Assembly (NCBI GenBank): GCA_034659215.1
Contig: JAYEGS010000057.1
Location: 1-55,787 of the forward strand
DNA from: Pseudomonadota bacterium
GTDB lineage: Bacteria > Desulfobacterota > Anaeroferrophillalia > Anaeroferrophillales > Tharpellaceae
Reading direction: 5' to 3'
DNA: 55,787 bases
This document shows positions 4,391-28,465 of the stretch, one piece after another. A program made the translations under genes and the position numbers. Numbering within the stretch: the stretch's first letter is position 1; every line of letters begins with the position of its first letter. A model generated the notes under the pieces. That model saw only the letters and a list, made by a program, of their open reading frames with translations. It ran no database searches and was not told the origin of the DNA.

Positions 4391-5800
4391 ATGACAGGAG
4401 TAAAGGTTCTTGTAGTTGACGATGAAGCGGTAATCAGGAAAGGGCTCTGCCGGGTCATGGAGGGTCGGGGCTACCAGGCGGAGTCAGCTGAAAGTGGTTT
4501 TGCGGCCATCGAGAAGCTTCAGAAAGCGCCCTTTAACATCGTCATCACGGATCTTAAAATGCCGGGAATGGATGGTATTGAGGTTCTGAAAGCCATCAAA
4601 ATCCTGCAACCTGATGTGCCGGTCATCATGATTACCGGGTATTCTACTGTGGATACTGCCGTAGAGGCCATGAAAAATGGGGCATTTGACTATATTTCCA
4701 AGCCTTTTACCCCGGAGCAGGTGATAGCGATGGTCGAAAAGGCGTTGGAACAGCGAACCGTTCAGCTTCAGCGAACCCATCCGGTGGTTGGACCCAGTTT
4801 GAACGGTTTCGAGATCTTTGTCGGCGAGAGCGAAGCGATGCAGAAGGTCTATGACCGAATCAGGCAGGTTGCTCCTACCGACAGTACGGTTCTTATCACC
4901 GGTCAGAGCGGGACCGGGAAAGAACTGGTGGCCAAGGCCATTCATAAAAACAGCGTGCGCTGCAACAAGCCCTTTGTCGCAGTCGATTGCACCTCTCTGG
5001 TTGAAAACCTTCTGGAAAGTGAGCTCTTCGGGCATGTCAAGGGTTCTTTCACCGGGGCCGTACAGACCAAGACGGGCCTGTTCAAGGTCGCTGACGGAGG
5101 CACTCTTTTTCTGGATGAGATTTCCAACCTCAGTCTGGCCACTCAAGGCAAACTATTACGGGTTCTCCAGGAGTTTAAAATAACTCCTATCGGGGGAACC
5201 AAACCCATTCCCGTTGATATTCGACTCATAACCGCCACCAACAGAGATCTGAATGAGATGGTCAAGGAAGGGCTTTTTCGTCAGGATCTCTTCTTTCGGC
5301 TGAATATCATCCCGGTTAACCTGCCTCCCCTGATTGATCGAGAAGGGGATCTTCCTCTTTTTATTGAGCATTTCCTGAAAAAATTCTCCGAGGAGATCGG
5401 CAAAGAGATTCATGGCGTCTCCCCGGCCGCTATGTCCATTCTGGAACGGCATCCATTTGTCGGAAACGTCAGAGAACTGGAAAATATTATTGAAAGGGCG
5501 GTTGTACTTACCCACAATAAACTTATCCAACCCGAGGATCTTGAGATTCAGCTCATCTCCGATGCTCCTTCTGAAATTATAACGGAGTCCGTTCCCCTGA
5601 GTGCGGAAGGCCTGAAGGAGGTCAAGCGACAGGTTCGGGAAAAAGCGGTCGGGCCGGTTGAACGCGCCTTCCTTATTCAAGCCCTTGAGCGCAACCACTG
5701 GGTTGTCACCCGGGCGGCCCGGGATGTCGGGATGTTGAGGCCCAATTTTCAGGCGATGTTGAAAAAACACAGTATTTCCGTAAGAGATCATTTTGAGTAG
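4391..5800 (+). CDS. Sigma-54-dependent Fis-family response regulator (NtrC class)
   Basis: Receiver domain (VLVVDDE...ITDLKMPGMDG...SKPF). AAA+ sigma-54 interaction domain (GQSGTGKE, GSFTGA loop, GGTLFLDEI). C-terminal Fis-type HTH. Confidence 0.92.
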   Translation: MTGVKVLVVDDEAVIRKGLCRVMEGRGYQAESAESGFAAIEKLQKAPFNIVITDLKMPGMDGIEVLKAIKILQPDVPVIMITGYSTVDTAVEAMKNGAFDYISKPFTPEQVIAMVEKALEQRTVQLQRTHPVVGPSLNGFEIFVGESEAMQKVYDRIRQVAPTDSTVLITGQSGTGKELVAKAIHKNSVRCNKPFVAVDCTSLVENLLESELFGHVKGSFTGAVQTKTGLFKVADGGTLFLDEISNLSLATQGKLLRVLQEFKITPIGGTKPIPVDIRLITATNRDLNEMVKEGLFRQDLFFRLNIIPVNLPPLIDREGDLPLFIEHFLKKFSEEIGKEIHGVSPAAMSILERHPFVGNVRELENIIERAVVLTHNKLIQPEDLEIQLISDAPSEIITESVPLSAEGLKEVKRQVREKAVGPVERAFLIQALERNHWVVTRAARDVGMLRPNFQAMLKKHSISVRDHFE

Positions 5801-5821: not shown

Positions 5822-7411
5822 ATGCGTCTGAAATTGATCGTTCAGATCTCTTTGATTACGGGAATTATTCTCCTGTTCACCTCGGCCCTCTTTGGTTACT
5901 TTAATATCTCAATTCTCAGGCACGCCTTCTTCAAGAGCGCTGTATCAGACCTCGACCATCTGAGTGAAACTATTTTCAGAGCTGTATTTCATCAGATGTT
6001 GAAAAATGACCGGGATGCGATTCAGGTTACAATCGGGGAGGTGGGCGCAGGGAAGGGGATAGAGAGTGTCAGGATCCTCAACCGGGAGGGGGTGATGGCC
6101 TTCTCCACCCAAACAAGCGAAATCGGCTCCATCTTTGACAAAGAGCAGGCTCCGGCCTGTATGGTTTGTCATAATCATGGAATGACCCTGGATGATCCCT
6201 TTCCCATGGGCAAAAGCCGAGTCTGTATGGAGGACCCCTCCACCCTGGCTCGAAGTGGAATGTTTATTGATAGTAACGGAAAAAAGGTTCTCGGCCTGAC
6301 CAGGCCCATATATAACGAGGAGACATGCTGGACGGGTGCATGCCATGCCCACTCCAAGGATACGCATTTTCTGGGTCTTCTGGAGATTACCATTTCCGCC
6401 GATCCCATGCTCTCGATGATCAGCAATTATCGCAATAATACCATTATTCAGATTCTTTTTCTGATTCTCTCCATCTCACTCTGTTTGACCCTGCTCACCA
6501 AAAAGTTGATCATCCAACCGGTTCATACGCTGTTGGAACACACCCGGGCAGTCGGAAAGGGCGATTGGAGCCCTGTCGACTCAGTGCCGGGAGACGAATT
6601 GGGGGAACTTGCTGAGGCGTTCAACGATATGACCGGCAAGTTAAAGAAAAACCGGGAAGAGCAGGAGAGGTGGGCGGCGACGCTGGAGAGCCGGGTGGAG
6701 GAGCGCACGCGCGAGATAAAGGAGATGCAGTCGGTTCTGGTACGCTCGGAAAAACTCGCATCCTTAGGAGAACTCGTTGCGGGGATCGCCCACGAGCTCA
6801 ATAACCCGCTTACCGGGATTATGATTCACACCTCTCTTATTTCCGGGGATCCACGTTTGGACAAGACTCTGGTGGAGGATTGCGAAACAGTTCTTCACGA
6901 GGCCCAGCGCTGTTCCAAGATCGTTAAGGAATTGCTGGACTTTGCCAGAGCCTCGGAACCGCAAAAGGCGATGTATCAGGTTAGCAAAGCCATTGACCGA
7001 ACTATAGCCCTGATTGAATACAATACTGATTTTAAAGAGACTGAGATAGTCAAAGAGTATGATCCTGACCTCCCGGCAGCATTGATGGACGCATCCCAGA
7101 TTGGGCAGGTTTTTATTAATATGATAGTCAACGCCAATCAAGCTATGCCGCAAGGCGGGAAACTGATCATAAAGACAGGTGTGAATGAAGCAAAAGATTA
7201 CATCTATGTTCGGATTGAGGATACCGGATGCGGTATTCCGGAAGAAAATATAGAGAAACTTTTCGACCCTTTTTTTAGTACCAAGGGGCACCATGGTACG
7301 GGCCTGGGGCTTTCGGTCTCTTACGGAATTATCCAGTCCCACGGTGGCAATATTGAGGTTGAGAGCACGCCGGGAAGAGGAACGGCTTTTACTATTTATC
7401 TACCCCTCTGA
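5822..7411 (+). CDS. Sensor histidine kinase with periplasmic c-heme-motif domain, HAMP, HisKA and HATPase_c
   Basis: TM1, a periplasmic domain of about 190 aa containing CMVCH (CXXCH) and CWTGACH (CX4CH), TM2, HAMP, H-box GIAHELNNPL, and N/G boxes (NANQAM, DTGCGI, GTGLGLS). Sits 21 nt after the regulator gene. Confidence 0.9.
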   Translation: MRLKLIVQISLITGIILLFTSALFGYFNISILRHAFFKSAVSDLDHLSETIFRAVFHQMLKNDRDAIQVTIGEVGAGKGIESVRILNREGVMAFSTQTSEIGSIFDKEQAPACMVCHNHGMTLDDPFPMGKSRVCMEDPSTLARSGMFIDSNGKKVLGLTRPIYNEETCWTGACHAHSKDTHFLGLLEITISADPMLSMISNYRNNTIIQILFLILSISLCLTLLTKKLIIQPVHTLLEHTRAVGKGDWSPVDSVPGDELGELAEAFNDMTGKLKKNREEQERWAATLESRVEERTREIKEMQSVLVRSEKLASLGELVAGIAHELNNPLTGIMIHTSLISGDPRLDKTLVEDCETVLHEAQRCSKIVKELLDFARASEPQKAMYQVSKAIDRTIALIEYNTDFKETEIVKEYDPDLPAALMDASQIGQVFINMIVNANQAMPQGGKLIIKTGVNEAKDYIYVRIEDTGCGIPEENIEKLFDPFFSTKGHHGTGLGLSVSYGIIQSHGGNIEVESTPGRGTAFTIYLPL

Positions 7412-7422
7412 AGATCCTCCTA

Positions 7423-7563
7423 GGAAGCTGTCCGAGAATAGAAATTTTTTCTCAGATCGAGGCATTTTTTTCAAATAAGCGCAGGCATATACTTAATATT
7501 CCGAGCATTATTTAAAAAAAATAACGAAGAGCTGGGGGGAAATGGCATTCTCGGACAGTCTCC
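7423..7563 (-). mobile_element. MITE-like element, family A, copy 2 (141 bp, inverted orientation)
   Basis: Reverse complement aligns along its full length with copies 1 and 3. Flanked by TA/TA. Fills the gap between the convergent stops at 7411 and 7563-7565. Confidence 0.75.
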
Positions 7564-10472
7564 TAGCCGCTTCCTTTGAAATGGAATCTAATTTTTGCCT
7601 GAATTTGAGAGAGGTGGGAAAGGATCCTCTTCAGCATCGTTTGCTCAATGTCGGTCAGGCTTTTGGGGTTGATGAAATTATCCGGGGGCAAATTGCGGTT
7701 AATCATGGTTGTTTGATGTTTTAAGCGGAACTGCATCAGGTAGCTGTAAACCTCGGTTGTCTCTTCATAGGTGTTTCTTTTGATCGCCCCGATTTCATAT
7801 AGTTTTTTTATGCGTAAAAGCGTATTGGTCTCGGCAATGTTGTACTGTAGGGAATAGATTCTGGCAAAGTTTAACAATAGCTTCATGGCATTTTTGATAT
7901 TGAAAGTTTCCGGTTTTTTATCCGATGATCCGACGACGATCTTGCCGAAAAAACTGATGGGTGGTTTATAGAGCAGGGCATTCTGGGCGAAATAGATGAA
8001 AAAAAGTCGGTTTTTTTGCAGTAGATTGTCAATATGTTGTCGTAACTTTTCGGTAAATCGACGGTTTCCATAGAGGCTTCTGAAATCGAAGAAAATATTG
8101 ATCTCCAGTAGATTTTGCGGTGTAGCTTCAGTTATCCAGTGATGGAAGTAATTTTTCCAGGAGGATAAGGGCTGGCACCATTTTGGGTTCATTGCCATTA
8201 TCTCGCCTTCGCACAGGCGATAGCCGGCCTGGTCCAGATCTTTACAAACTTTTTCCCCCAGCGAGATGAAATAAGCGTGCGTTTCTTCCTTTTTATCATC
8301 TTCAACGTCATCATATATAATGGCATTGTCCTGGTCGGTTACCAGGGTCTGTTCCGAGCGTCCGACGCTGCCGAGGGCTACAAATGAAAAGTCCGTCGGC
8401 GGAGGGCCGAGCTCCTCGATGGCAAAAGTGATGATTTTTTCATTGATCAGGTCGGAAACCTTACTGATCAGCTTGGTCGTGTTTTCTGACTTTGCCCCGC
8501 TGTCGATCAAGGTTTTGATTAGTCTCGGTAGCCGGTTATGAGCCTTGGCAAGAGTGGCGACAGACTCAGCTTCATGGATCTCCCGGATAAGTAATGAAGA
8601 TGAATACTGGTGGAATTGGAGGAGATCTCGAATGTCAATGATACCGTTGATTCGACCATCTGCAGCATGAGTAAACAGGTGTCTGACAGATTCCTGCTGG
8701 GTGAGTCGGGTGGCTTCGAAGATCAGGGTGTCATCCGGTATTGAAATAATCGAGGAACTCATTATTTGATGGACTTGAGTTTCCGGCGCCATGTTTTCCA
8801 CGACGAATCGATGGGAGATGTCATAATCGGTTATGATGCCAAGGTCGTCCCCGGTTTCCGACTGGATGAGAATTGCGCTTTGTTGATGACTTTTCATGAT
8901 TTCGGCAGCTTTGTGGATGGAGCAGTGCATATTGCAGGTCAGAGGAGGGGTGGCAAATTTTTTGATGGGTTGATTGATGAAGAGGAGTGAGGTTTGGAGC
9001 TCAATAATAAGATCTTCGCGCTCCTGTTCTACTTTTACCCTTTCTGTTATATCTTCAACAATGCCTTCAAAATGTTCAATAACTCCATCATTATTCAAAA
9101 TTTCTCCCATGGAAATTGAGATAATCGGGTTGGTTCCGTCATGCCTTCTTAAGGGGAGAATGCGATTTTTTATAAAACCTTTTTCTTTGAGTTGAGCCTT
9201 GAGGTCTTCCCAATCCTGAAGATCTGTAAATAGCAGTGAAAGGGGGGTGTTGAAAAGTTGCTCCCGGTTTTTGCAGCCGAAGATTTCGGCCGTTGCCGGG
9301 TTGACTTCAATGAAATTACCATTTTTGGAAGTATCTATGAGGAAAACTCCAATATGCAGGTTGTTGGTAAGAGACTGATAGCGTTGTCGGCTGAGTCCTA
9401 ATTCTTCCTCTATCTTTTTGTTTTTTCTGATATCTTTCAGGGTCAGTATAACCCCTTTTTGGTTTTCAAGGGTTATGCTTGCTACTGAAATATGGGTATC
9501 CAACAGGTTTCCGTCGGCGGAGAGCAGTCGGGCTTCAAAATTAGGGTGCATTTTGTGATTTTTGAGAATATCCTGGTAAAATTGGCGGCCTTTTGCATCC
9601 TGACTGAAAATAGTTTCGAGATCAGTTTCAGAAAGTTCTTCGGCATAGCCGAGCATCTCCTGAATGGCTTTGTTACAGTAGGCCGGATTTCCTTCAATGA
9701 ACATCAAAACGCCTTCCGGGGAAGCTTCAACCAGAGTCCGGTACTTTGTTTCAGATTTTTCAAGCTCTTCTTCCGCTTGTTTACGTTTTCTCTCAATCTG
9801 CAGGCTCTCCAGGTTGATTTGAAAGAGCAGTAGAAGAATGAGAAGGGTTATAGCGGAAGACATCTTGACTATCGTGCTGCTCATAGCACTTATATCTTTC
9901 TCCACATCATCCAGATAGATTCCGGTGCCGACAATCCAATTCCAGGGAGTAAAACTTTTTACGTAGGAGACTTTGGGGACTATCTTGGTCGGGTCGTCAT
10001 TCCACTGCCACAGGTAGTCGACAAATCCTTCCCCATGTTTCTGGGCGGTTTCCACTATTTCTCTGAATAGTTTTTTTCCCTGCTTATCAGTGTGGTTCGA
10101 GAGATTTATGCCCTCTAAATCATCACGATAGGGGTGCATGATTGTTATCGGAGTTGTATCAATTATCCAGAAATAATCTTTTTTCTCCTTGCCGTAACGC
10201 AGGTTCCTGATTGTTCTTATGGCTCTTTTTTGAGCTTCCTCTCTAGTTAACAGGCCTTCTTTCTCCTCTGTCTGCTGTGTCTCGAGAATGCCCCATGCAG
10301 AATTTGTGAGTTCACGGATCATCTCCCTTTTGTCCTCCATTAATTCACATTTCATTAGAGGTATGATGATCATGAACAAGGAGATGATAAAGAGAGAAAT
10401 GGCAAGCAGGGTGGGGAGGGTTATTTTCAGGGAAAAATTTTTTCGGCGGTCTTGTTTCATGTTTTGATACAT
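7563..10472 (-). CDS. Membrane sensor protein: sCache_2-like, two PAS domains, CBS pair, DUF294 putative nucleotidyltransferase with its C-terminal substrate-binding domain
   Basis: TM, then Cache signature DYFWIID...MHPYRDDLEGINL...GEGFVDYLWQW...PKVSYVKSFTPWNWIVGTGIYLDDV, then TM. Two PAS-like segments and a CBS pair follow. GlnD-type NTase motif LGSVGRSEQTLVTDQDNAIIY is present. I prefer the start at the ATG 10472 or 10460, because the longer listed ORF (to 10658) overlaps the upstream gene. Confidence 0.8.
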   Translation of the reverse strand: MYQNMKQDRRKNFSLKITLPTLLAISLFIISLFMIIIPLMKCELMEDKREMIRELTNSAWGILETQQTEEKEGLLTREEAQKRAIRTIRNLRYGKEKKDYFWIIDTTPITIMHPYRDDLEGINLSNHTDKQGKKLFREIVETAQKHGEGFVDYLWQWNDDPTKIVPKVSYVKSFTPWNWIVGTGIYLDDVEKDISAMSSTIVKMSSAITLLILLLLFQINLESLQIERKRKQAEEELEKSETKYRTLVEASPEGVLMFIEGNPAYCNKAIQEMLGYAEELSETDLETIFSQDAKGRQFYQDILKNHKMHPNFEARLLSADGNLLDTHISVASITLENQKGVILTLKDIRKNKKIEEELGLSRQRYQSLTNNLHIGVFLIDTSKNGNFIEVNPATAEIFGCKNREQLFNTPLSLLFTDLQDWEDLKAQLKEKGFIKNRILPLRRHDGTNPIISISMGEILNNDGVIEHFEGIVEDITERVKVEQEREDLIIELQTSLLFINQPIKKFATPPLTCNMHCSIHKAAEIMKSHQQSAILIQSETGDDLGIITDYDISHRFVVENMAPETQVHQIMSSSIISIPDDTLIFEATRLTQQESVRHLFTHAADGRINGIIDIRDLLQFHQYSSSLLIREIHEAESVATLAKAHNRLPRLIKTLIDSGAKSENTTKLISKVSDLINEKIITFAIEELGPPPTDFSFVALGSVGRSEQTLVTDQDNAIIYDDVEDDKKEETHAYFISLGEKVCKDLDQAGYRLCEGEIMAMNPKWCQPLSSWKNYFHHWITEATPQNLLEINIFFDFRSLYGNRRFTEKLRQHIDNLLQKNRLFFIYFAQNALLYKPPISFFGKIVVGSSDKKPETFNIKNAMKLLLNFARIYSLQYNIAETNTLLRIKKLYEIGAIKRNTYEETTEVYSYLMQFRLKHQTTMINRNLPPDNFINPKSLTDIEQTMLKRILSHLSQIQAKIRFHFKGSG

Positions 10473-10479
10473 TTGTGAT

Positions 10480-10818
10480 TTATTTAATGTTTTTCTTAGC
10501 TTGTTTTTTGTCAGCTGTGATATGTAATCCGCAATGGAGGCATCTGCGCAGAAAGAGAGGTGTAAAACCATTAAGATGAAAAAGGTTACCACAACGCGGA
10601 CACTTGCCCGCCGTTGTGAGAATACTGGATATAAGAACAAGCAGAAACCAGACTGCAAAAACTTTGGCGGTTTGGCGATCGGAATTGGTTATCCGCAGCG
10701 AAAGCCAGATAGATGGTATATAAATTAGAAGTACCCCCCAAAAAAAACAACGCCGTCGGCGAAGTTTCCTCAGTCCGGGGGCGAATTTCGAGACATCTTC
10801 AGTCTTCTCTTCTTTCAA
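10480..10818 (-). CDS. Small membrane protein with C-terminal zinc-ribbon (CPRCG...CLHCG)
   Basis: 112 aa with a TTG start and AGGAGG 5 nt upstream. Two predicted TM helices are followed by two CXXC pairs. I recognise no family. Confidence 0.5.
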   Translation of the reverse strand: MKEEKTEDVSKFAPGLRKLRRRRCFFWGVLLIYIPSIWLSLRITNSDRQTAKVFAVWFLLVLISSILTTAGKCPRCGNLFHLNGFTPLFLRRCLHCGLHITADKKQAKKNIK

Positions 10819-10922: not shown

Positions 10923-11447
10923 TCACTTTTTCAATATCGCGAGTATCTTTTTCTCTTTCCTGATGGCTTCACTGCAGGCGGACCAGACTCGATAGTTCTC
11001 AAGGCCGAGAATCGTCAGACCGGCGATAAACACTGGCCAAAAATTATCCCGAAGTGCACCGCTATAGTAATAGAACAGATAAAATGCCGACAGATAGCCG
11101 ATGTGTGACCAACCCCGAAAGTGAACGGATGCAGTGTTCATACGGCCCAGGATGAGGATGAGGGCGGAAAAAGCGTAGACTATCAGGGCAATGCTGATCA
11201 GGGTCGGAGAGGGAGAAATGCCTAGGAGCTGTCTTAGGTTTTCGGATATGGGGGGAAGGAATCGGAAGTTGACCGTCGCACCAAGGCTAACCAGGAAAAA
11301 CAGGGCCATCCACAATTTACTGTTGCGTATCTGTTTCTTGAGGTCGCGGATTCGATCCTGAATTTTCCGGCGCCGCTGATCCGGGCTCGGCACATCCTCG
11401 CTCGGATCTAAGTGATGATTTTGTTTCTGTTTCCGCCGTAAAAACAC
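10923..11447 (-). CDS. Hypothetical polytopic membrane protein (174 aa, GTG start)
   Basis: Basic N-terminal tail (RRRKIQDRIRDLKKQIR) followed by about four hydrophobic helices. I recognise no family. Confidence 0.45.
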   Translation of the reverse strand: MFLRRKQKQNHHLDPSEDVPSPDQRRRKIQDRIRDLKKQIRNSKLWMALFFLVSLGATVNFRFLPPISENLRQLLGISPSPTLISIALIVYAFSALILILGRMNTASVHFRGWSHIGYLSAFYLFYYYSGALRDNFWPVFIAGLTILGLENYRVWSACSEAIRKEKKILAILKK

Positions 11448-11520: not shown

Positions 11521-12369
11521 TTATTCACCTTTTCCTTTGTCCATATTATCAGCTTTCTTGATTTTTATCAATGTTGTTTCGGCAAGTTGTTTTTCCATGG
11601 CCATGTCAAGATAGATCCGGCCAAGGGTCTCAATTTCACTAACCCCTTTAGGGAAATCATTATCCACTTTTCCCCCGGAAATCTTTTTCACATAGTCCAT
11701 CAACTGGTCAATAGGCGTCAGCAGGTTTCGTTTGAGGAGGGCACTGACTCCGCCTACGGATAATATGAGAATCATTACGCAGAAGACTGCCATTTTCCAG
11801 CGCAGAGACTGCAGGCTACCGTCCAGAGAAGCGGTCGACAGGCCGATGTCCAGAGTTCCGAGAACTTTCTGCTGGGTGGGGTGAAAGTGGCAGTTGCCGG
11901 CAGAACAGTGGGCATCGTTGTATATCGGGGCGGTGATGGCTAACACGTTGTGGTTTTTGGCATTGACAAAACGCCTCGCCAGCTCCATGGAGCCCAGACG
12001 TACCGCAGGTTCGGAACCGCTGTGGCACTCGATACATCCGGCTGTCGTTTTGTCTACGACCTGGCTTAACTCTTCAGGGTTAGAGGAGAACATGATAACC
12101 CCCTCCTTGTTGAAGATACGGAGATGCTCGATTCCTTGCTGAGCTCCGATGCTGCCAATAATATGGTTCAGGCTTTCCCGGTCATCAGTCATCATGGTGT
12201 AGCGGGTTGCACTGACGACAGTATCGGCAAGACTGGTCTCTTGACGTACCGCGTCCCTCAGAAAACCCTCTTTAATGGAGGAGTACAGGAAAAGGCTGCA
12301 GATGATGACAAAACCAGTCAGGGAAAGCGCCACCGGGACGATGGCTTTGGAAGCAAAGTTGTTGAACAT
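11521..12369 (-). CDS. Membrane-anchored periplasmic c-heme-motif sensor domain plus HAMP-like segment, with no kinase output
   Basis: Start ATG 12369 with AAGGAGG 7 nt upstream. TM1, a periplasmic domain with CIECH (CXXCH) and CSAGNCH (CX4CH), TM2, and a HAMP-like LLTPIDQLMDYVKKISGG...EIETLGRIYLDMA. The periplasmic part aligns with that of the kinase at 5822-7411. Confidence 0.7.
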   Translation of the reverse strand: MFNNFASKAIVPVALSLTGFVIICSLFLYSSIKEGFLRDAVRQETSLADTVVSATRYTMMTDDRESLNHIIGSIGAQQGIEHLRIFNKEGVIMFSSNPEELSQVVDKTTAGCIECHSGSEPAVRLGSMELARRFVNAKNHNVLAITAPIYNDAHCSAGNCHFHPTQQKVLGTLDIGLSTASLDGSLQSLRWKMAVFCVMILILSVGGVSALLKRNLLTPIDQLMDYVKKISGGKVDNDFPKGVSEIETLGRIYLDMAMEKQLAETTLIKIKKADNMDKGKGE

Positions 12370-12446
12370 ATCCGACCCTCCTTTCCGGTCTTCCGGTTTC
12401 AAGCCTTAATTGTTACAATATTTATCGCTTTTAAGTTGAAGGTTTC

Positions 12447-12508
12447 AAAAAGGTCTAAGAAGTCGAAGAGGCTAACCCCTTAGACCTCTTCAACCTTTTA
12501 GACCTTTT
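12447..12508 (-). terminator. Imperfect long hairpin after the NrfD-like gene; possible intrinsic terminator
   Basis: AAAAGGTCTAAGAAGTCGAAGAGGCTAA cccc TTAGACCTCTTCAACCTTTTAGACCTTTT. On the minus strand the stem runs into TTTTTG. Confidence 0.4.
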
Positions 12509-12519
12509 CGACACATCTT

Positions 12520-13869
12520 TTATGAGGGCGTCACCACTTTTGCGAACTGGCGCTGCTCAGGATGGGCTGAGATAGGCTCAGTCCGGTTGGATACGGGCAC
12601 GGATGCAAGTTCTTTTGCCGGCACGGTCTTCCACGAATAGAGAATCGGGAGCCGATAGAGAAGAAAGCGGTAGACCACCACGAACAGGGCAAATATGGTT
12701 ACGCTTATGATCGTTTCCAATATATGGGGAATCTCCTGATAAAGGTTCCAGTTGAAACTGATCAGAGCCGTATTCAGCCGGTTCATCAGCAACCCGGCAA
12801 TAGTGAGAAAGGCGGTAAATCTGATCAAACCAACGTTTTTTCCTCTAATGGCGATGGAGAAAAGGATGATGGGAAGCACTACCCCCAAACCGATTTCCAG
12901 CATGTACCACTGACCCCATCCGGTGGGGAGATAGGACCACAGGTTGTCATGAACCAATCCGATAAGTTTGATCACAAAATAGGTTACCAGAGCCATGCTG
13001 GCGCCTTTGGCGAGACCGATGGTAATCGAGTCGAGATTATCCAGAAACTCACTGCTGCAACGCCAGGCCATGGTCTTTTTGACAATGGTACTCACTGCGA
13101 TAACCATACAAAGACCGGCAAAAACTGCAGAGCAGAGGTAGAATATCCACATAAACTCCGATGAGTACCAGAGTGGGTGCACTTTCCCCGGCGCATAGGT
13201 AAGGAGGGTTCCCAGAGCCCCCTGGTGGAGAGTCGAAAGGATGATTCCCGCCACGGTCAAGCCGATGGTTCCTCTATGTATATAGTTTTTCGCGGTGGGC
13301 CAGTTGATCCATTCAAAAAATGTCTCGGAAACTTCCAATATCTGCACTGTCAGGTAGGTCGCTACATGCCAGCCGACGAGAAAGAGAACGGCCGCCGTAC
13401 CCCAGGCGACAACCATGGGATAGTAGAGCCGCCAGGGACAGCCGAGATCTACCAGCAGGTAAACAACCGCAAAAAAATATCCGAGCAAGCCGTTGAGCAG
13501 CGCCAGATTAAGAATTGGTTTGAATTTTTTGTGACCGAAAAGTTCCACCGTCGTGCCGAGCAGAAATCCTGAGGCGGAGAGCGGCACCATACAGAAAAGA
13601 CCGAAGCCTAAGAAAAGGCCCCATGGGTAATCGAAACCGCCGTGCATAACCGAGCCCAGCCCATTGATATACCTATAGACAATAACCGGCAGGCCTACAG
13701 CAAAGATCATAAATAGGAACCAGTTGAAAGGATTACGCCGAAGTTGCTGGAAATACTCTTTAGGAGATAATCCCAGCAACAGTTTTTGCATTATATTCCA
13801 CTGGTGTCCATCAGTCGGATCGTTTAGAGAGTCAACCGGCTTAAAGCCTTTTTCAATAAAATGTTTCAT
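12520..13869 (-). CDS. NrfD/HybB/PsrC-family integral membrane quinone-interacting subunit
   Basis: 449 aa with about 10 TM helices. Its position after a Tat-exported FeS protein, with a 4-nt ATGA overlap, is the classic NrfCD/HybAB/DsrOP arrangement. Confidence 0.85.
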   Translation of the reverse strand: MKHFIEKGFKPVDSLNDPTDGHQWNIMQKLLLGLSPKEYFQQLRRNPFNWFLFMIFAVGLPVIVYRYINGLGSVMHGGFDYPWGLFLGFGLFCMVPLSASGFLLGTTVELFGHKKFKPILNLALLNGLLGYFFAVVYLLVDLGCPWRLYYPMVVAWGTAAVLFLVGWHVATYLTVQILEVSETFFEWINWPTAKNYIHRGTIGLTVAGIILSTLHQGALGTLLTYAPGKVHPLWYSSEFMWIFYLCSAVFAGLCMVIAVSTIVKKTMAWRCSSEFLDNLDSITIGLAKGASMALVTYFVIKLIGLVHDNLWSYLPTGWGQWYMLEIGLGVVLPIILFSIAIRGKNVGLIRFTAFLTIAGLLMNRLNTALISFNWNLYQEIPHILETIISVTIFALFVVVYRFLLYRLPILYSWKTVPAKELASVPVSNRTEPISAHPEQRQFAKVVTPS

Positions 13870-14816
13870 TCTCCTTGAACCTCCACTCTATTTTTAGACT
13901 TATCGTCTGTTTTTCCCTTTCCTCCTTTTGCCAGAAGATGAAATCCCAGAAACATGGCTGGCCAGATGCCTAAGACCATCGGTACGATGCCCAGGAAACT
14001 TTTGGTATTGTCTAAGATCGGGTGGTGTTGAAGGGTAGTGTTGAAACCCGCCTGATCGAAGGGAACACTGGATATATACATCCAGGAAGTACCGCCGACC
14101 TCGGTTTCCCCGTAGACATGATCGACATATTTTTTGGGGTTCGACCGAATCCGGTCATGCGCGGTTTTCACAAGGGTCTTCCGGTGCCCGAAAGTAAGAG
14201 CATCTTGTGGGCAGGCCTCGACACAGGCTGGCGGTTTCCCTTTAGTTAGACGGTTATCGTAGCAGAAGTTACATTTTATTATTTCAGGATGTAAAGCACT
14301 GTCATAAGTGTATGCCGGCATACTGAAGGGGCAGGCAACCATACACATTCTGCAGCCAACGCAGACATCCGCGTTGTAGATGACCGCGCCCTCTTTTGTT
14401 TTCGTGTAAGCGTTAACAAAACATGAGGTCAAACAGGCTGGTTCACTGCAATGGAAGCACTGGAGTTTCCGGTAGACCGGTGCACCCTGATCTTTTGTAT
14501 CGTAGCGGTTGACCACTGTGTAGGCTTTTTCAGTGGTTCTGCGTTTCTGTTTACCTCCGTGAAATACCTCATCGAAAACCGAGAAGTCGCTAAAAGATTT
14601 TTCCGGTTCCGGAAGGCCATGTTCTTGATTACATGCCGCTTCGCAGGTACGACAGCCGATGCAGCGGGTAAGATCTACCAAGACCCCCATACTGTCAGGG
14701 TAACCTTCGAACTCCTTCATAGCATGGGCGCTTTTTGTGGAGGACATCGCCGCAGCAGCGCTGCCGCCAGCGATGACGGTCGATTTGAGAAATTTTCTCC
14801 GGCTTATACCACTCAT
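13866..14816 (-). CDS. Tat-exported four-cluster [4Fe-4S] ferredoxin-type subunit (NrfC/HybA/DsrO-like) with C-terminal TM anchor
   Basis: Twin-arginine signal SRRKFLK...AHA. Cys groups CIGCRTCEAAC, CFHCSEPACLTSC, CVGCRMCMVACP and CNFC...CVEACP. Hydrophobic C-terminal helix FLGIVPMVLGIWPAMFLGFHLL. Confidence 0.9.
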   Translation of the reverse strand: MSGISRRKFLKSTVIAGGSAAAAMSSTKSAHAMKEFEGYPDSMGVLVDLTRCIGCRTCEAACNQEHGLPEPEKSFSDFSVFDEVFHGGKQKRRTTEKAYTVVNRYDTKDQGAPVYRKLQCFHCSEPACLTSCFVNAYTKTKEGAVIYNADVCVGCRMCMVACPFSMPAYTYDSALHPEIIKCNFCYDNRLTKGKPPACVEACPQDALTFGHRKTLVKTAHDRIRSNPKKYVDHVYGETEVGGTSWMYISSVPFDQAGFNTTLQHHPILDNTKSFLGIVPMVLGIWPAMFLGFHLLAKGGKGKTDDKSKNRVEVQGE

Positions 14817-14867
14817 AATGATCTATCCCCCTTTCCTTGTTGAAAAATGATCTCTTTCTCGAAAAAT

Positions 14868-15395
14868 CTATTCATGACCGCCTCCAGTTCCACCACCTGT
14901 GGGTGCATACTTGCCGGAACGGTAAAAACGATCGCCGGCGTCAGTCCTTTCATGACAGTCCGCACATTCTGAAGGTGCCTCCATTGCAAAATGGCAGTTG
15001 TAACACCTTAGGTGATAGGCGCCTTTGAGTCCGGTTATATCGACATGGTATCGATTCGGATCAGCCTCCATCTCCCTCAAATGCTCTACGGTGAACGGCT
15101 CTTTGACGTGGCAATCACTGCAGGCCACGGAGGATGTTCCTTTACTATCGGAATGGCATCTAGCGCATTGCGTATCCGCAACGCCATTGCCGAACACGTG
15201 ATGGTGGCAGACGGAACAGTCTTCCTCGACGCCGACATGCAGTTCGTGGTCAAAATCAACTCCATTGTAAAGGTGGGACAGGGAGTCTATGCGCACGGAT
15301 GCTGGGGGCTCGCCACCAGCGCCAAAAGCTGGTGCGGCGAGAAAAAACAGCGCCACGATCGTCCCTTTCAGGGCCCATCTTTTTCTACTTTTCAT
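14868..15395 (-). CDS. Periplasmic pentaheme c-type cytochrome (cytochrome c3-family like)
   Basis: Start ATG 15395 with GAGGAGGA upstream. Signal peptide MKSRKRWALKGTIVALFFLAAPAFG. Five CXXCH motifs (CSVCH, CARCH, CSDCH, CYNCH, CADCH). Confidence 0.85.
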   Translation of the reverse strand: MKSRKRWALKGTIVALFFLAAPAFGAGGEPPASVRIDSLSHLYNGVDFDHELHVGVEEDCSVCHHHVFGNGVADTQCARCHSDSKGTSSVACSDCHVKEPFTVEHLREMEADPNRYHVDITGLKGAYHLRCYNCHFAMEAPSECADCHERTDAGDRFYRSGKYAPTGGGTGGGHE

Positions 15396-15426
15396 TCGTT
15401 CGTTCCTCCTCGAATGTTCAGATATA

Positions 15427-15615
15427 CTATTTGTTTCCGTTATCAGCATCTTTATCGTACATGATAACTTTCCTATAAAAAAATGGAAATGCGATCAAAA
15501 ACCCGACACAGACGAGATATTCGACAGCTTTGATATAATCGTAGTACTCAACCAGGGTGCCGATCGCTACCGGTTCGCCAATGGTATTGAAAAAATGAGT
15601 TATTTGGTTGCCCAT
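15427..15615 (-). CDS. Small single-TM protein (62 aa)
   Basis: AAGGAG lies upstream of the ATG. One hydrophobic helix (YLVCVGFLIAFPFFY). Tightly packed in the operon. No known family. Confidence 0.45.
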   Translation of the reverse strand: MGNQITHFFNTIGEPVAIGTLVEYYDYIKAVEYLVCVGFLIAFPFFYRKVIMYDKDADNGNK

Positions 15616-15636
15616 TGAAGATCTCCTTTTCCGCGG

Positions 15637-15879
15637 TTAATTTCCATTCGGTGTGGATTCAGTCGCTACGGCCTCTTTTTTGTGTGACAAGCCAACTGAT
15701 GCTTTAATGAATCCCAGAACCAGCATGAGGGCCGGAACCAGTTGGGCGACAACGATCAGCGCACAAATTCCGACAAAAACAGAGACCAGAATCCCGCTCT
15801 TGTAAACCACCGTATCCCCGGCAAATGCCGGACTGATTGACGCCAGAACTAAAAAGATTGTTGTGATAGCTGTTTTCAT
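15637..15879 (-). CDS. Small exported/membrane protein (80 aa), paralog of 16383-16631
   Basis: AAGGAG RBS. Signal peptide MKTAITTIFLVLASISPAFA, then helix SGILVSVFVGICALIVVAQLVPALMLVLGF, which resembles IGLIGWLFIGFMAVIVACQFIPSIMMFGSM in the other copy. Confidence 0.5.
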   Translation of the reverse strand: MKTAITTIFLVLASISPAFAGDTVVYKSGILVSVFVGICALIVVAQLVPALMLVLGFIKASVGLSHKKEAVATESTPNGN

Positions 15880-15908
15880 GATTAATTCTCCTTTTATTTT
15901 TCGTCCCC

Positions 15909-16340
15909 CTAGTGCATCTCCACGTTGGAGTTTCCCAGGGTAGAACCTTTTGGGGACAGTCTTCTGTCCGTTGAATTATGAAATGCACATTGAACTACCT
16001 GTTTGATCTCCTCCTTGTCATCGCTGTTTACCGGTTTTAAGGCATGGTAGAAGATTCCCTCTTTACGGACTCTGCGGATAAGGGGGAGAGACTCCTCATT
16101 TGATATTAGGATAATGGTTAAGTTTTGGTTACAGCTCTTTAAAATGGGGATTATTTCCATTGCTGATAACCCGTCGAACTCGCTTCCCAAGAGGATAACG
16201 CTGGCCTCTTTTTTCAAGACATTACGAAGAACAGCATCTACGGAATCCGCCTCGATGACCTGATACTCGCTTCCGTTGAGATATCCCGCGATCTGTTTGC
16301 GAGTTGTCTCGTCTCTGTCAGCTATAAGAAGAAGCTGCAT
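15909..16340 (-). CDS. Stand-alone receiver-like domain protein lacking the phospho-acceptor Asp (pseudo-receiver)
   Basis: The CheY-like pattern is LLLIADRDE ... VILLGSEFDGLSAMEII ... IILIS ... YHALKP. The end of beta-3 reads LLG where LLD is expected. The beta3-alpha3 loop is shortened. Confidence 0.65.
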   Translation of the reverse strand: MQLLLIADRDETTRKQIAGYLNGSEYQVIEADSVDAVLRNVLKKEASVILLGSEFDGLSAMEIIPILKSCNQNLTIILISNEESLPLIRRVRKEGIFYHALKPVNSDDKEEIKQVVQCAFHNSTDRRLSPKGSTLGNSNVEMH

Positions 16341-16382
16341 GGTTTATCCCCCTTTTTAGAAAATGCCCTGGTAGACCGCCAA

Positions 16383-16631
16383 TCAAGAGTGGTCGACCTT
16401 TCCATTATTCAAAACGTCTTCATGGGTTTTTGTTTTTCTAAAAAGGCCCGTCATCATGGAGCCGAACATCATTATTGAGGGGATAAACTGGCAGGCAACA
16501 ATAACAGCCATAAATCCAATGAAAAGCCATCCGATGAGGCCGATTCCTCCACTTTCAACGCCGTTTGCGGCAAAAACCGAATTTGCTTGCAACATGACCA
16601 TCAGTGTGACGATACGTAATGTGTTTTTCAT
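16383..16631 (-). CDS. Small exported/membrane protein (82 aa), paralog of 15637-15879
   Basis: I prefer the ATG at 16631 because GGAGG lies 8 nt upstream, whereas the GTG at 16640 overlaps that site. Signal peptide MKNTLRIVTLMVMLQANSVFA plus one TM helix. Confidence 0.5.
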   Translation of the reverse strand: MKNTLRIVTLMVMLQANSVFAANGVESGGIGLIGWLFIGFMAVIVACQFIPSIMMFGSMMTGLFRKTKTHEDVLNNGKVDHS

Positions 16632-16727
16632 TTTTCTCACCTCCGTGCAGCTTCAAAAAAACTTCAATGCTTATTTGCGTTGTATTCTTTATGCGATCTG
16701 CGAAATACTTTATACAATCTACAGATT

Positions 16728-16743
16728 TGCATTAACCGTTCCA
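16728..16743 (-). promoter_or_regulatory. Candidate sigma-54 (-24/-12) promoter
   Basis: The minus strand reads TGGAACGGTTAATGCA, against the consensus TGGCACG-N4-TTGCA. GG and GC are at the correct spacing. It lies about 97 nt upstream of the ATG at 16631, at the head of the tightly packed operon. Confidence 0.35.
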
Positions 16744-17110: not shown

Positions 17111-17623
17111 TTAATTCTCAAAAAGTTTCAGAAATTCTCCGTAGCCCTCCTTTTCCAGCTTCTCAACCGGAATAAATCGCAATGAGGCTGAGTTTATACA
17201 ATAGCGTTGCCCGGTCGGGGCCGGGCCATCATCAAAAACATGGCCGAGATGAGAATCACCGTATTTACTGCGAACCTCGGTTCTCGCCGTGAAAAGGCCA
17301 CGATCCTTTTTTAAGGTAATATGTTCTTTAATAAGAGGCCGGGTAAAGCTGGGCCAACCGGTGCCGGATTCGAATTTGTCCAGTGAACTGAATAGCGGTT
17401 CTCCCGAAACAATATCAACATAAATTCCGGCTTTTTTATTATCCCAATACGGATTGTCAAAGGGGCTTTCCGTCGCTTCTTCCTGGGTCACCTGAAATTG
17501 CAGCGGCGTCAGCATCTTTTTGATATCATCCGAATCCGGTTTCTGATAACGCCTTTCGGCCAGCACCGGCACGGAGAAAGCACAAAATGAGAAGATCAGC
17601 AAAAGTAGAAAAAATTTATTCAT
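17111..17623 (-). CDS. msrB: Exported peptide-methionine (R)-S-oxide reductase MsrB
   Basis: Signal peptide [22 protein letters not shown]. SelR motifs [32 protein letters not shown] and RYCINS. GGAGG upstream of the ATG at 17623. Confidence 0.9.
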
Positions 17624-17633
17624 CGTAAATCTT

Positions 17634-18071
17634 CTAACCTCCAAGAACATAGACACGGTAAACCCACCATCCGGTATAGGCCTGATAGAATGCCAGGATC
17701 AGCAGCAAAAGGTTGTTGGTGCCATGGAGCAAAGGCAAGAGCTTCCTTTTTTTCTTGCGGTGATCCATGTAGAGGCCGGAGAAAAGACCAAAGAGCAGCA
17801 AGGGAAGCATGAGCAGGGCTTGTTTGCCATGGGCTCCGGTAATCAGAAAACCGTGCCACCAGAGTCGTACCATGACCATGCCGCCGACCAGCCCGGCCAG
17901 CCATAACCCCAGTGTGATAATCCCCAGCTTAACGTGGGCTTTCCATTTGAAAGCAACTTTTTGCTGCCAATGCAGGGAGCGAAAGCGTTTTTGGCCCAGC
18001 CAGAGAACATAGCCTGCCAGCAAGGTTGCAAGCGCTTGGTTCATCGGATGAAAGAGCAGTACGACGGTCAT
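17634..18071 (-). CDS. Four-TM membrane protein, DUF4079-like, with one His at the start of each helix
   Basis: 145 aa. HP at TM1, AHVKLG at TM2, GAHGKQA at TM3 and LLHGTNN at TM4. The family assignment is from memory only. Confidence 0.55.
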
Positions 18072-18103: not shown

Positions 18104-18580
18104 TTATTTAAAATCGTGAACCAGAACAAAATCGTTCTTCGCCCGAGTACCGTGACAGCCAATACAGCCCGCCGGTTTGCCGGCTATAGCAGCCTCTCCA
18201 TCAGGTGAATATTTGACCCAGAACCAGTCTCCGTCACCAGGGTTGTAGTCTTTAATTTTATACATAACGGTTATGGCTTTGAGTTCGCCGGCCATATTGA
18301 AGTTCTCTTTTACCTGAATCGAGCCGTATTGTAATGGAGGTGCGGTTGAAGCCAGGGCTTTATCGTTGACGTAGACCTTGTGTTTGGGGCCATGCGGAGC
18401 CCGGCCATCCTGCATGCCCAGATGATCGGGCCAAAAAGACCAATTTTGATAAGGTGAATCTTTGGTGATATAGCTCCAGAGGGCATCCGCATCACTGCCC
18501 GGCATTTCGGCCATAACCACAGGAACCGTAAATAGAGTAACCAGCAGTATGACGAAGCCGACGATAAGATTCTTTTTCAT
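18104..18580 (-). CDS. Exported cytochrome P460-family monoheme protein
   Basis: Start ATG 18580 with AAGGAG upstream. Signal peptide MKKNLIVGFVILLVTLFTVPVVMA. PHGP...VYVN...GDGDWFWVKY...CIGCH near the C-terminus is the P460 / cytochrome c-prime-beta pattern. Confidence 0.7.
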   Translation of the reverse strand: MKKNLIVGFVILLVTLFTVPVVMAEMPGSDADALWSYITKDSPYQNWSFWPDHLGMQDGRAPHGPKHKVYVNDKALASTAPPLQYGSIQVKENFNMAGELKAITVMYKIKDYNPGDGDWFWVKYSPDGEAAIAGKPAGCIGCHGTRAKNDFVLVHDFK

Positions 18581-18731
18581 GGTAAATCTCCTTTTATGTA
18601 GGGTTCGGGTTGAACTATAAAATAATACTAAACTAATACACTCAAATATAGAAGATGGAAATGAAAATAGCAACCTTCCAAACTCTTTTTCACAAATAAT
18701 TGATCATTTGATCGAAAAAGGTAAAGGCGAG

Positions 18732-26357: not shown

Positions 26358-26433
26358 GCTGGCGTAGCTCAACTGGAAGAGCAGCTGACTTGTAATCAGC
26401 AGGTTGCGGGTTCGAGTCCCATCGCCAGCTCCA
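26358..26433 (+). tRNA. tRNA-Thr (anticodon TGT)
   Basis: Cloverleaf folded by hand. Acceptor GCTGGCG/CGCCAGC, anticodon stem GCTGA/TCAGC with loop CTTGTAA, TTCGAGT T-loop, encoded CCA. One C-A mismatch in the T stem. Confidence 0.85.
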
Positions 26434-26468
26434 CTGAAAATAAAGAGTATTTGAAAAAAAGAGTATCT

Positions 26469-26553
26469 GGAGAGGTTCCCGAGTGGTCAAAGGGAACAGA
26501 CTGTAAATCTGTCGGCAGAGCCTTCGGAGGTTCAAATCCTCCCCTCTCCACCA
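26469..26553 (+). tRNA. tRNA-Tyr (anticodon GTA), long variable arm
   Basis: Acceptor GGAGAGG/CCTCTCC, anticodon loop CTGTAAA, T arm GGAGG-TTCAAAT-CCTCC, encoded CCA. Confidence 0.9.
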
Positions 26554-26586
26554 TTTACGAAGCTTAGATAAACGCATCTTTTTTAG

Positions 26587-26663
26587 GCGGGAATAGCTCA
26601 GTTGGCTAGAGCGTCAGCCTTCCAAGCTGAGGGTCGCGGGTTCGAGTCCCGTTTCCCGCTCCA
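26587..26663 (+). tRNA. tRNA-Gly (anticodon TCC)
   Basis: Acceptor GCGGGAA/TTCCCGC, anticodon stem TCAGC/GCTGA with loop CTTCCAA, TTCGAGT T-loop, encoded CCA. Confidence 0.9.
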
Positions 26664-26707
26664 TTCCAAGTGCGAAATAATTTGGAATATCTGCCGAGGC
26701 GGATTAG

Positions 26708-26782
26708 GCCCACGTAGCTCAGTGGTGGAGCACTTCCTTGGTAAGGAAGAGGTCATCGGTTCAATCCCGATCGTGGGCTCCA
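26708..26782 (+). tRNA. tRNA-Thr (anticodon GGT)
   Basis: Acceptor GCCCACG/CGTGGGC, anticodon stem CTTCC/GGAAG with loop TTGGTAA, T arm ATCGG-TTCAATC-CCGAT, encoded CCA. Confidence 0.9.
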
Positions 26783-28388: not shown

Positions 28389-28465
28389 AGGCCAGTAGCT
28401 CTAATGGCTAGAGCACCGGACTCCAAATCCGGGTGTTGGGGGTTCGAATCCCTCCTGGCCTGCCA
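28389..28465 (+). tRNA. tRNA-Trp (anticodon CCA)
   Basis: Acceptor AGGCCAG/CTGGCCT, anticodon stem CCGGA/TCCGG with loop CTCCAAA, TTCGAAT T-loop, encoded CCA. Confidence 0.9.

Follow-up and report, generated by a model that had tools for sequence, protein, structure and literature searches.

A candidate sigma-54-controlled NrfD-type quinone:cytochrome c module and the accessory genes it appears to share with CbcBA-type loci

What does a membrane-bound quinone module do when no catalytic subunit is encoded near it, and what are the small genes packed against it? The question is raised by a locus in a 55,787-nucleotide (nt) contig, JAYEGS010000057.1 of assembly GCA_034659215.1 (the whole stretch is hereafter the window), from a Pseudomonadota bacterium that the Genome Taxonomy Database (GTDB) places in the Desulfobacterota. 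Seven genes lie back to back on its minus strand between positions 12520 and 16631. In order of transcription they encode an 82-amino-acid (aa) small membrane protein (sTM1), a 143-aa stand-alone receiver-fold protein without the phospho-acceptor aspartate (RR*), an 80-aa paralogue of the first (sTM2), a 62-aa single-helix membrane protein (p62), a pentahaem cytochrome c (cyt5), a 4x[4Fe-4S] iron-sulfur (FeS) protein and an NrfD-class integral membrane subunit. A preliminary description, made from the letters of the window, had singled out this run as a candidate for an undescribed respiratory or signalling unit. All seven open reading frames (ORFs) and their tight packing hold: the intergenic gaps are 42, 29, 21, 31 and 51 nt, followed by a 4-nt ATGA overlap, and a GGAG-type ribosome-binding site lies ahead of each start. 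The arrangement is far beyond chance; the gene order is kept in dozens of species genomes. Its lack of a catalytic partner was also borne out. The window has no gene for a molybdopterin, hydrogenase or other catalytic subunit, its remaining genes having housekeeping, efflux and signalling functions. Nor does a catalytic subunit lie in over 80 related loci: neither the species loci, about 80 in number, nor the cultured genomes that we examined have a hydrogenase or molybdopterin gene next to the cluster.

We read the cluster, at a probability of roughly 60%, as an inner-membrane oxidoreductase under sigma-54 control, with the menaquinone pool on one side of its reaction and periplasmic c-type cytochromes on the other, set within a shared, possibly regulatory frame. 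Sequence comparison indicates that the accessory genes form a common, uncharacterised frame around two unrelated, interchangeable quinone-coupling cores, one of the CbcBA type and one of the Hmc/Nhc type. These accessory genes are already listed in Geobacter, as uncharacterised genes or nominal Cbc5 subunits. In the literature consulted we found no statement that one frame is common to two unrelated cores, that the cassette receiver lacks its aspartate, or that the CbcD-position protein is a kinase-less paralogue of a sensor kinase.

Extent of the unit and its two core types

Relatives of the NrfD-class protein occur in 385 GTDB species genomes. We took loci from the best 80 of these (60-89% identity) and counted neighbouring genes by profile, each denominator being the loci with enough flank; individual loci, here and from other searches, are labelled L plus a number. 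Nearly all of the 80 are Desulfuromonadales-type metagenome-assembled genomes (MAGs), and Candidatus Tharpella aukensis and unclassified Thermodesulfobacteriota/'Pseudomonadota' MAGs come closest. The cluster is also present in culture, in Geopsychrobacter electrodiphilus and Malonomonas rubra. Across these genomes the order p62, cyt5, FeS, NrfD-class is nearly invariant and continues into two further genes, here called sens293 (11521..12402, minus strand; likely true start the ATG at 12369) and mem174 (10923..11447, minus strand). Upstream, p62 is present in 58 of 58 loci, cyt5 in 57 and the FeS gene in 56; downstream, sens293 is found in 64 and mem174 in 66 of 68. RR* lies upstream in 49 of 58 loci and anywhere in the locus in 52, and both sTM genes lie upstream in 46. 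Because the counts for p62, cyt5, FeS, sens293 and mem174 are near total and those for the three leading genes are 46-52 of 58, the invariant unit consists of six genes, including sens293 and mem174, preceded by a frequent, separable cassette of three. The seven genes of the preliminary description were rightly delimited as far as they went, and it had passed over the two conserved downstream genes, a sigma-54 promoter and a nearby kinase and activator. It had also grouped the four small genes as one set. This grouping does not stand: p62 is an invariant partner of the core, and the other three form the separable cassette, which precedes CbcBA-type operons as well.

A metagenome scan seeded with RR* shows two core types behind the cassette. 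In type A, the cassette is followed by a CbcA-like cytochrome (7 haem), a CbcB-like cytochrome b and often a 12-haem cytochrome, and then by sens293-like and mem174-like genes; in type B, it is followed by p62, cyt5, FeS and NrfD-class genes, and then by sens293 and mem174. The type-A protein in the fourth (CbcD) position is 43-52% identical to sens293 of the window, and the type-A gene order equals the published order of Geobacter metallireducens CbcABCDE, in which a 7-haem cytochrome, a cytochrome b, an 11-haem cytochrome, the monohaem CbcD and the membrane protein CbcE follow one another (PMC10470525). In Geobacter sulfurreducens, the cbcBA operon comprises a sigma-54 promoter, GSU0597 (hypothetical), GSU0596 (response receiver), GSU3489 (hypothetical), CbcB and CbcA; the activator BccR adjoins it, and a terminator follows cbcB (bioRxiv 10.1101/2021.04.15.440034). 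By synteny, sens293 would be CbcD-like and mem174 CbcE-like, the match to the named genes of these two species being one of gene order.

In the cultured Geotalea uraniireducens Rf4 (L167), the cassette, CbcA, CbcB and a mem174-like gene are adjacent. Its counterparts match those of the window at 50% identity for RR* (E=1e-42), at E=2e-5 and 4e-8 for the small cassette proteins, and at 39% identity for mem174 (E=5e-29), compared here with the protein after CbcB. One locus, L039, holds the NrfD-type cluster together with a second operon, in which sTM, RR* and sTM are followed by a 7-haem cytochrome anchored at its C terminus, a cytochrome b of PF01292 and a homologue of mem174. The locus in the window contains neither a PF01292 protein nor a 7-haem cytochrome, and the NrfD-type core stands in their place. 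Further core types may plug into the same frame: in the metagenome loci L150, L151, L163, L117 and L161 the cassette is followed by genes of neither type, with a 471-aa 7-haem ORF after a p62-like gene in L161. Directly downstream of the CbcBA-type locus of Geotalea uraniireducens (L167 8721-15371) lie toxin-antitoxin pairs (PemK, ParE, RHH) and CRISPR-associated Cas2 and Cas4, which suggests the boundary of a variable genomic island.

Regulation is a further element of the frame. A sigma-54 (-24/-12) promoter candidate, TGGAACGGTTAATGCA, lies at 16728..16743 on the minus strand, about 95 nt upstream of sTM1. Of 69 related loci, 59 have an equivalent GG-N10-GC element ahead of the gene that opens the operon, where 0.13 would be expected per region; among them are loci that begin with p62. 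Nearby, on the plus strand of the window, lie an NtrC-type sigma-54 enhancer-binding response regulator (4391..5800; Response_reg, Sigma54_activat and HTH_8), the probable activator of the operon, and a histidine kinase (5822..7411) in which a domain scan finds a haem-c Cache-like periplasmic sensor, HAMP, HisKA and HATPase, the probable cognate sensor. Among loci with 8-kb flanks, equivalents of the activator are found in 39 of 40 and of the haem-Cache kinase in 37 of 40. This recurrent pair probably drives the -24/-12 promoter; the cbcBA operon of G. sulfurreducens is likewise sigma-54/BccR-dependent (bioRxiv 10.1101/2021.04.15.440034).

The accessory proteins and their possible role

Profile searches gave a divided answer for the four small proteins, with RR* matching PF00072 and sTM1, sTM2 and p62 matching no Pfam or NCBIfam family, permissive thresholds included. 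sTM1 (16383..16631, minus strand; 82 aa from the ATG, 85 if an upstream GTG is used) and sTM2 (15637..15879, minus strand) are paralogues, as had been noticed, with 29% identity (pairwise E=1e-5) and reciprocal profile matches at E ~1e-22; the conserved core of sTM1 reads F-G-F-x-A-L-I-x-V-x-Q-L-x-P-A. RR* (15909..16340, minus strand) scores 40.7 bits against PF00072 (cut-off 30.2; E=3e-10). The receiver fold assigned to it earlier is therefore confirmed, but its phospho-acceptor aspartate is missing: Gly52 stands at the position of CheY D57. Of 69 homologues, 65 have S or G in this column, and K109 is kept in the family; among metagenome homologues, the aspartate is absent from 24 of 24 type-A and 29 of 34 type-B proteins. 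Geopsychrobacter, Malonomonas and some metagenome sequences encode RR* and sTM2 as one fused protein, with RR* in front. Because these fusions place a cytoplasmic receiver before a membrane helix, the pseudo-receiver appears to be membrane-tethered. For the small cassette proteins, described at first as exported, two-helix membrane hairpins are more likely, since the N-terminal hydrophobic segment of sTM2 follows a cytoplasmic domain in the fused forms.

In the closest relatives (L008, L009 and L010), a second copy of the cassette follows the 174-aa gene with no redox genes behind it (e.g. L010 13428-14410). The window has no second copy. Where it would stand, there are a zinc-ribbon membrane ORF of 112 aa (10480-10818) and a gene for a 1031-aa membrane protein (7563-10658, minus strand), which has a Cache domain, two PAS domains, CBS and both the catalytic (DUF294) and the substrate-binding domain of a putative nucleotidyltransferase. 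Such a link from sensor to nucleotidyltransferase is unusual. We considered both genes as members of the unit and rejected them, as neither is kept beside the cluster in related loci of other species.

The two downstream proteins differ in how far they can be placed. sens293 consists of a transmembrane (TM) helix, a periplasmic haem-c Cache-like domain with the motifs CIECH and CSAGNCH, a second TM helix and HAMP; it has sCache and HAMP matches and no output domain, and a sequence search of the PDB returned nothing. The CxxxxCH site is almost invariant among homologues. An alignment of sens293 with the N-terminal 250 aa of the neighbouring kinase gives 30% identity (E=4e-31) and brings both haem motifs into register, so that sens293 is a kinase-less paralogue of that kinase's sensor module. 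mem174 is a predicted four-helix membrane protein of a fold class without known match. Its AlphaFold2 (AF2) model has a pLDDT of 91, a Foldseek search with this model found no relative among solved structures (best E 1.6), and no Pfam or NCBIfam family matches at permissive thresholds. The mem174 family forms 137 representative clusters among 1.84 billion proteins, none of them fused, and some relatives are labelled 'menaquinol oxidoreductase' in public databases.

Between core and downstream genes, directly after the NrfD-class gene, a folding prediction places an RNA hairpin of about 30 bp (12438..12517, minus strand; folding free energy -44.9 kcal/mol, z=-7.15), a probable terminator or attenuator that is unique in the window. 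Of two close relatives, L009 has a homologous hairpin and L010 one of another sequence that carries a U-run; the more distant L012 and L001 have no comparable hairpin.

From these layouts we speculate that the cassette and the CbcD-like and CbcE-like proteins act as a membrane-bound regulatory kit and not as electron-transfer subunits. Cassette, sens293 and mem174 would form a membrane-tethered regulatory or assembly kit, possibly with feedback on the kinase and activator. In a stronger and more tentative form of this idea, which we think has less than an even chance, they would be an unrecognised membrane signalling device that reads periplasmic or quinone-pool redox state and tunes either the kinase and activator or the plugged-in core, and the 'CbcD' and 'CbcE' of Geobacter would be regulators. 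If true, the device would select the respiratory branch according to redox potential. Research on extracellular electron transfer still asks by what means Geobacter and related bacteria switch, as the potential changes, between the quinol oxidases that work in parallel in their inner membrane. The shared frame sets an interchangeable redox core apart from common accessory genes, and it offers concrete knock-out targets in tractable G. sulfurreducens strains: GSU0597, GSU0596, GSU3489, cbcD and cbcE.

The naming of a Geobacter 'CbcABCDE complex' implies the opposite: cassette, sens293 and mem174 would then belong to the membrane complex itself, as structural or electron-transfer subunits in fixed stoichiometry, and would not be regulators. 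The published subunit list includes CbcD, a monohaem cytochrome, and CbcE, a membrane protein (PMC10470525), the accessory genes are tightly linked to both core types, and the near-invariant haem site of sens293 would suit such a subunit. We nevertheless find this doubtful. The TM-Cache-TM-HAMP plan that sens293 shares with the sensor module of the adjacent kinase is a signalling layout, and the same accessories serve two cores without any homologous subunit, which is hard to square with specific contacts. The cassette is moreover dispensable in some species, and the terminator-like hairpin parts sens293 and mem174 from the core here, as a terminator also follows cbcB in G. sulfurreducens.

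The redox core and the direction of electron flow

The preliminary description had called the last three genes a pentahaem cytochrome, a Tat-exported 4x[4Fe-4S] protein with a C-terminal anchor and an NrfD-type membrane subunit, and each assignment was corroborated. The 175-aa cyt5 (14868..15395, minus strand, from MKSRKRW; the longest ORF would extend to 15449) is of the c3/c7 class, and all five of its CXXCH motifs are kept in 77 homologues. It matches PF14522 and the NCBIfam c7, HmcA and TmcA models, among solved structures it comes closest to two C-terminal domains, that of the nine-haem cytochrome c 1DUW (residues 177-289, E=4e-6) and that of HmcA (1H29/1GWS), and it shows a partial match to NapC/NirT (E=0.002). 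A word-indexed homologue search with cyt5 returned 52 close relatives, no named Geobacter protein among them. The 316-aa FeS protein (13866..14816, minus strand) has a Tat motif that reads SRRKFLK, its cysteines fall into four clusters, and its C terminus is a hydrophobic tail. It scores 396 bits against NCBIfam HmcB (E=8e-119; cut-off 420) and 207 bits against HybA, contains Fer4_11 in Pfam, has further matches to DsrO, NrfC and QrcC, and finds FdnH (1KQF_B, E=2e-31) among solved structures.

The 449-aa NrfD-class protein (12520..13869, minus strand; 10 predicted helices) scores 340 bits against NCBIfam HmcC (E=1e-101; cut-off 550) and 156 bits against HybB (E=1e-45), and also matches QrcD (E=7e-11). 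A Pfam scan of the protein itself gave no NrfD match at E<=0.1, although PF03916 is precomputed on close homologues. PDB sequence searches, by single sequence and by profile, returned nothing. Its AF2 model, with 10 long helices, is of low confidence (pLDDT 59, pTM 0.54, from a shallow alignment) and was used for a coarse fold match, in which the top Foldseek hits are ActC/ActF of alternative complex III (E=8e-6 to 5e-4; TM-score to ActC ~0.5). Ahead of the trio, p62 (15427..15615, minus strand) has the conserved motif T-L-V-D-x-Y-x-Y-I-K-G-x-E-Y-L-I-C...F-P. In some type-B loci an additional cytochrome c gene lies between the NrfD-class and 293-aa genes, with nine CXXCH in L103 and L141 and likewise inserted in L079 and L123 (haem count partial in L123); its place recalls that of the 12-haem CbcC in CbcBA-type loci.

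On account of the HmcB, HmcC, HybA and HybB matches and the match of cyt5 to the C-terminal domains of nine-haem cytochrome c and HmcA, we assign the trio to the Hmc/Nhc/HybAB branch of NrfD-type complexes. The core adds a minimal five-haem version to the Hmc/Nhc family and is not a new kind of respiratory enzyme. The earlier suggestion of an undescribed respiratory kind is not sustained, as the trio falls in this branch and its architecture equals that of Geobacter Cbc4. The absence of a catalytic subunit is normal for quinone:cytochrome c oxidoreductases of the Nhc, Qrc and Cbc4 types, and a quinol:periplasmic carrier shuttle, as first proposed, is the best reading of a trio without catalytic partner.

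The composition of the core can be read from the genes; the electron path and any coupling we infer from the Hmc, Nhc, HybAB and Qrc families. The haem-free NrfD-class subunit, with its 10 predicted helices, would bind quinone or quinol and could couple electron transfer to proton movement. Electrons would pass from quinol through the FeS chain and the pentahaem cytochrome to soluble periplasmic cytochromes, or in reverse, with p62 as a putative single-helix fourth subunit. Expression would be driven by the neighbouring haem-Cache kinase and NtrC-type activator, which probably act on the -24/-12 promoter. We favour menaquinol oxidation that feeds the periplasmic cytochrome network, because the core holds the slot of the menaquinol oxidase CbcBA in the same frame in Desulfuromonadales.

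The same complex could also run in the opposite direction, as a periplasmic cytochrome c:menaquinone reductase, which is what Nhc and Qrc are proposed to be. Electrons released when hydrogen or formate is oxidised in the periplasm, or supplied by a cathode or a syntrophic partner, would then enter the quinone pool and leave it through quinol-dependent reductases. The closest characterised families (NhcABCD, Qrc and Hyd-2; PMC8076601) run this way, and the best matches of the core are HmcB/HmcC, HybA/HybB and 9Hc/HmcA. This direction is possible but in our view on the unlikely side, as the core stands in for a menaquinol oxidase inside the same frame and most hosts belong to the Desulfuromonadales, whose respiration uses extracellular acceptors. 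Modules of the NrfD type can, though, work reversibly, and sequence does not by itself decide between the two directions.

Several observations weigh against a sigma-54-controlled menaquinol:cytochrome c oxidoreductase with a regulatory frame. The characterised relatives Nhc, Qrc and Hyd-2 mostly reduce quinone. The HmcB and HmcC scores fall below the NCBIfam equivalog cut-offs, so the cluster is not Hmc itself, and the membrane subunit is poorly modelled (pLDDT 59). The cassette is absent from about one in six species loci; the core can thus do without it. A strong hairpin separates the core from sens293 and mem174 in this lineage, so that the frame may not be transcribed as a whole. The regulatory role proposed for the accessory genes is an argument from domain logic, and the cluster type is known from its genes.

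Two further explanations fare worse. The FeS and NrfD-class pair could be the anchor of a catalytic enzyme encoded elsewhere, such as a HybOC-type periplasmic hydrogenase, in line with the clear similarity to HybA (207 bits) and HybB (156 bits). The HmcB and HmcC scores are far higher, a dedicated cytochrome and p62 are always co-encoded, and the loci and cultured genomes examined have no adjacent hydrogenase or molybdopterin gene, which makes this highly improbable. That the small ORFs are chance ORFs or non-functional remnants has nothing in its favour beyond small size and lack of family annotation and is refuted by conservation, since order, ribosome-binding sites and motifs are kept across dozens of species, gene fusions and Geotalea uraniireducens homologues exist, and in G. 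sulfurreducens the genes at these positions, GSU0597, GSU0596 and GSU3489, show transcription and co-regulation. All four small genes are real, as first described.

Elsewhere in the window, a 189-aa exported protein (18104-18673, minus strand) has a cytochrome P460 domain (E=1e-9) and one CXXCH. Beside its gene are those for a 145-aa membrane protein (17634-18071) and for what looks, from a reading of the sequence, like an exported MsrB-type methionine sulfoxide reductase (17111-17656). Five tRNA genes (26358-26779 and 28389-28462, plus strand) lie on either side of the EF-Tu gene, and nusG, the gene for ribosomal protein L1 and rpoB/rpoC come next; an Rfam scan of the window found nothing but tRNAs. 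The contig is chromosomal, because it holds this standard conserved ribosomal and transcription region.

Comparison with known systems

Like E. coli Hyd-2, a hydrogen:quinone enzyme (PMC8076601), the cluster encodes a homologous FeS and haem-free NrfD-class pair facing the periplasm (HybA/HybB in Hyd-2). No hydrogenase subunits are linked to it here, and the periplasmic partner is a cytochrome c. With Cbc4 of Geobacter sulfurreducens (CbcSTU, GSU0068-0070), a proposed menaquinol:periplasmic cytochrome oxidoreductase (bioRxiv 10.1101/2025.04.14.648717), it shares a three-part build and gene order, with a cytochrome c first, a 4x[4Fe-4S] protein second and an integral membrane subunit last. The literature gives CbcS as a NapC/NirT-type tetrahaem cytochrome with a membrane anchor, whereas cyt5 has five conserved haem sites and matches c3/c7/9Hc-type proteins; on this description of CbcS we provisionally did not file the cluster as Cbc4. 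Nor did we file it as Cbc3 or Cbc6: according to the literature, these two have orthologous subunits in common, and their subunits are given as b-type cytochrome and membrane proteins and not as NrfD-class.

The closest likeness of the core is to Nhc (NhcABCD) and the HmcABC part of Hmc in Desulfovibrio, which have a periplasmic multihaem cytochrome c, a Tat-exported 4x[4Fe-4S] protein, a 10-helix NrfD-class protein (10 helices are predicted here) and a small membrane subunit, of which p62 is a candidate counterpart, and which, as here, lack a catalytic enzyme. NhcABCD and Qrc are described as TpIc3:quinone oxidoreductases without a separate catalytic enzyme (PMC8076601). Their differences from the present cluster are several. 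The Nhc and Hmc cytochromes have 9 or 16 haems, whereas cyt5 has 5 in 175 aa and matches their C-terminal domain alone; the FeS and NrfD-class proteins score under the Hmc equivalog cut-offs (396/420 and 340/550); and neither the cytochrome b HmcE nor the cytoplasmic HdrD-like HmcF is found in the window or its conserved neighbours. The candidate small subunit, p62, lies upstream here and has no detectable similarity to any model, and the cluster is under predicted sigma-54 control in a Cbc5-type frame. The hosts of Nhc and Hmc are sulfate reducers, whereas those of this cluster are Desulfuromonadales-like.

That frame is the point of likeness to the Geobacter Cbc5/cbcBA locus. Both have a sigma-54 promoter, a candidate one here, with the gene of an NtrC-type activator close by. 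Both open with a cassette in which a receiver gene stands between two hypothetical genes, and behind the core both have a terminator, here a probable one, and a trailing haem protein and membrane protein in the CbcD and CbcE positions. In Cbc5 the genes between are those of the 7-haem CbcA, the dihaem cytochrome b CbcB and the 12-haem CbcC; here, p62, a pentahaem cytochrome, an FeS protein and an NrfD-class subunit take their place.

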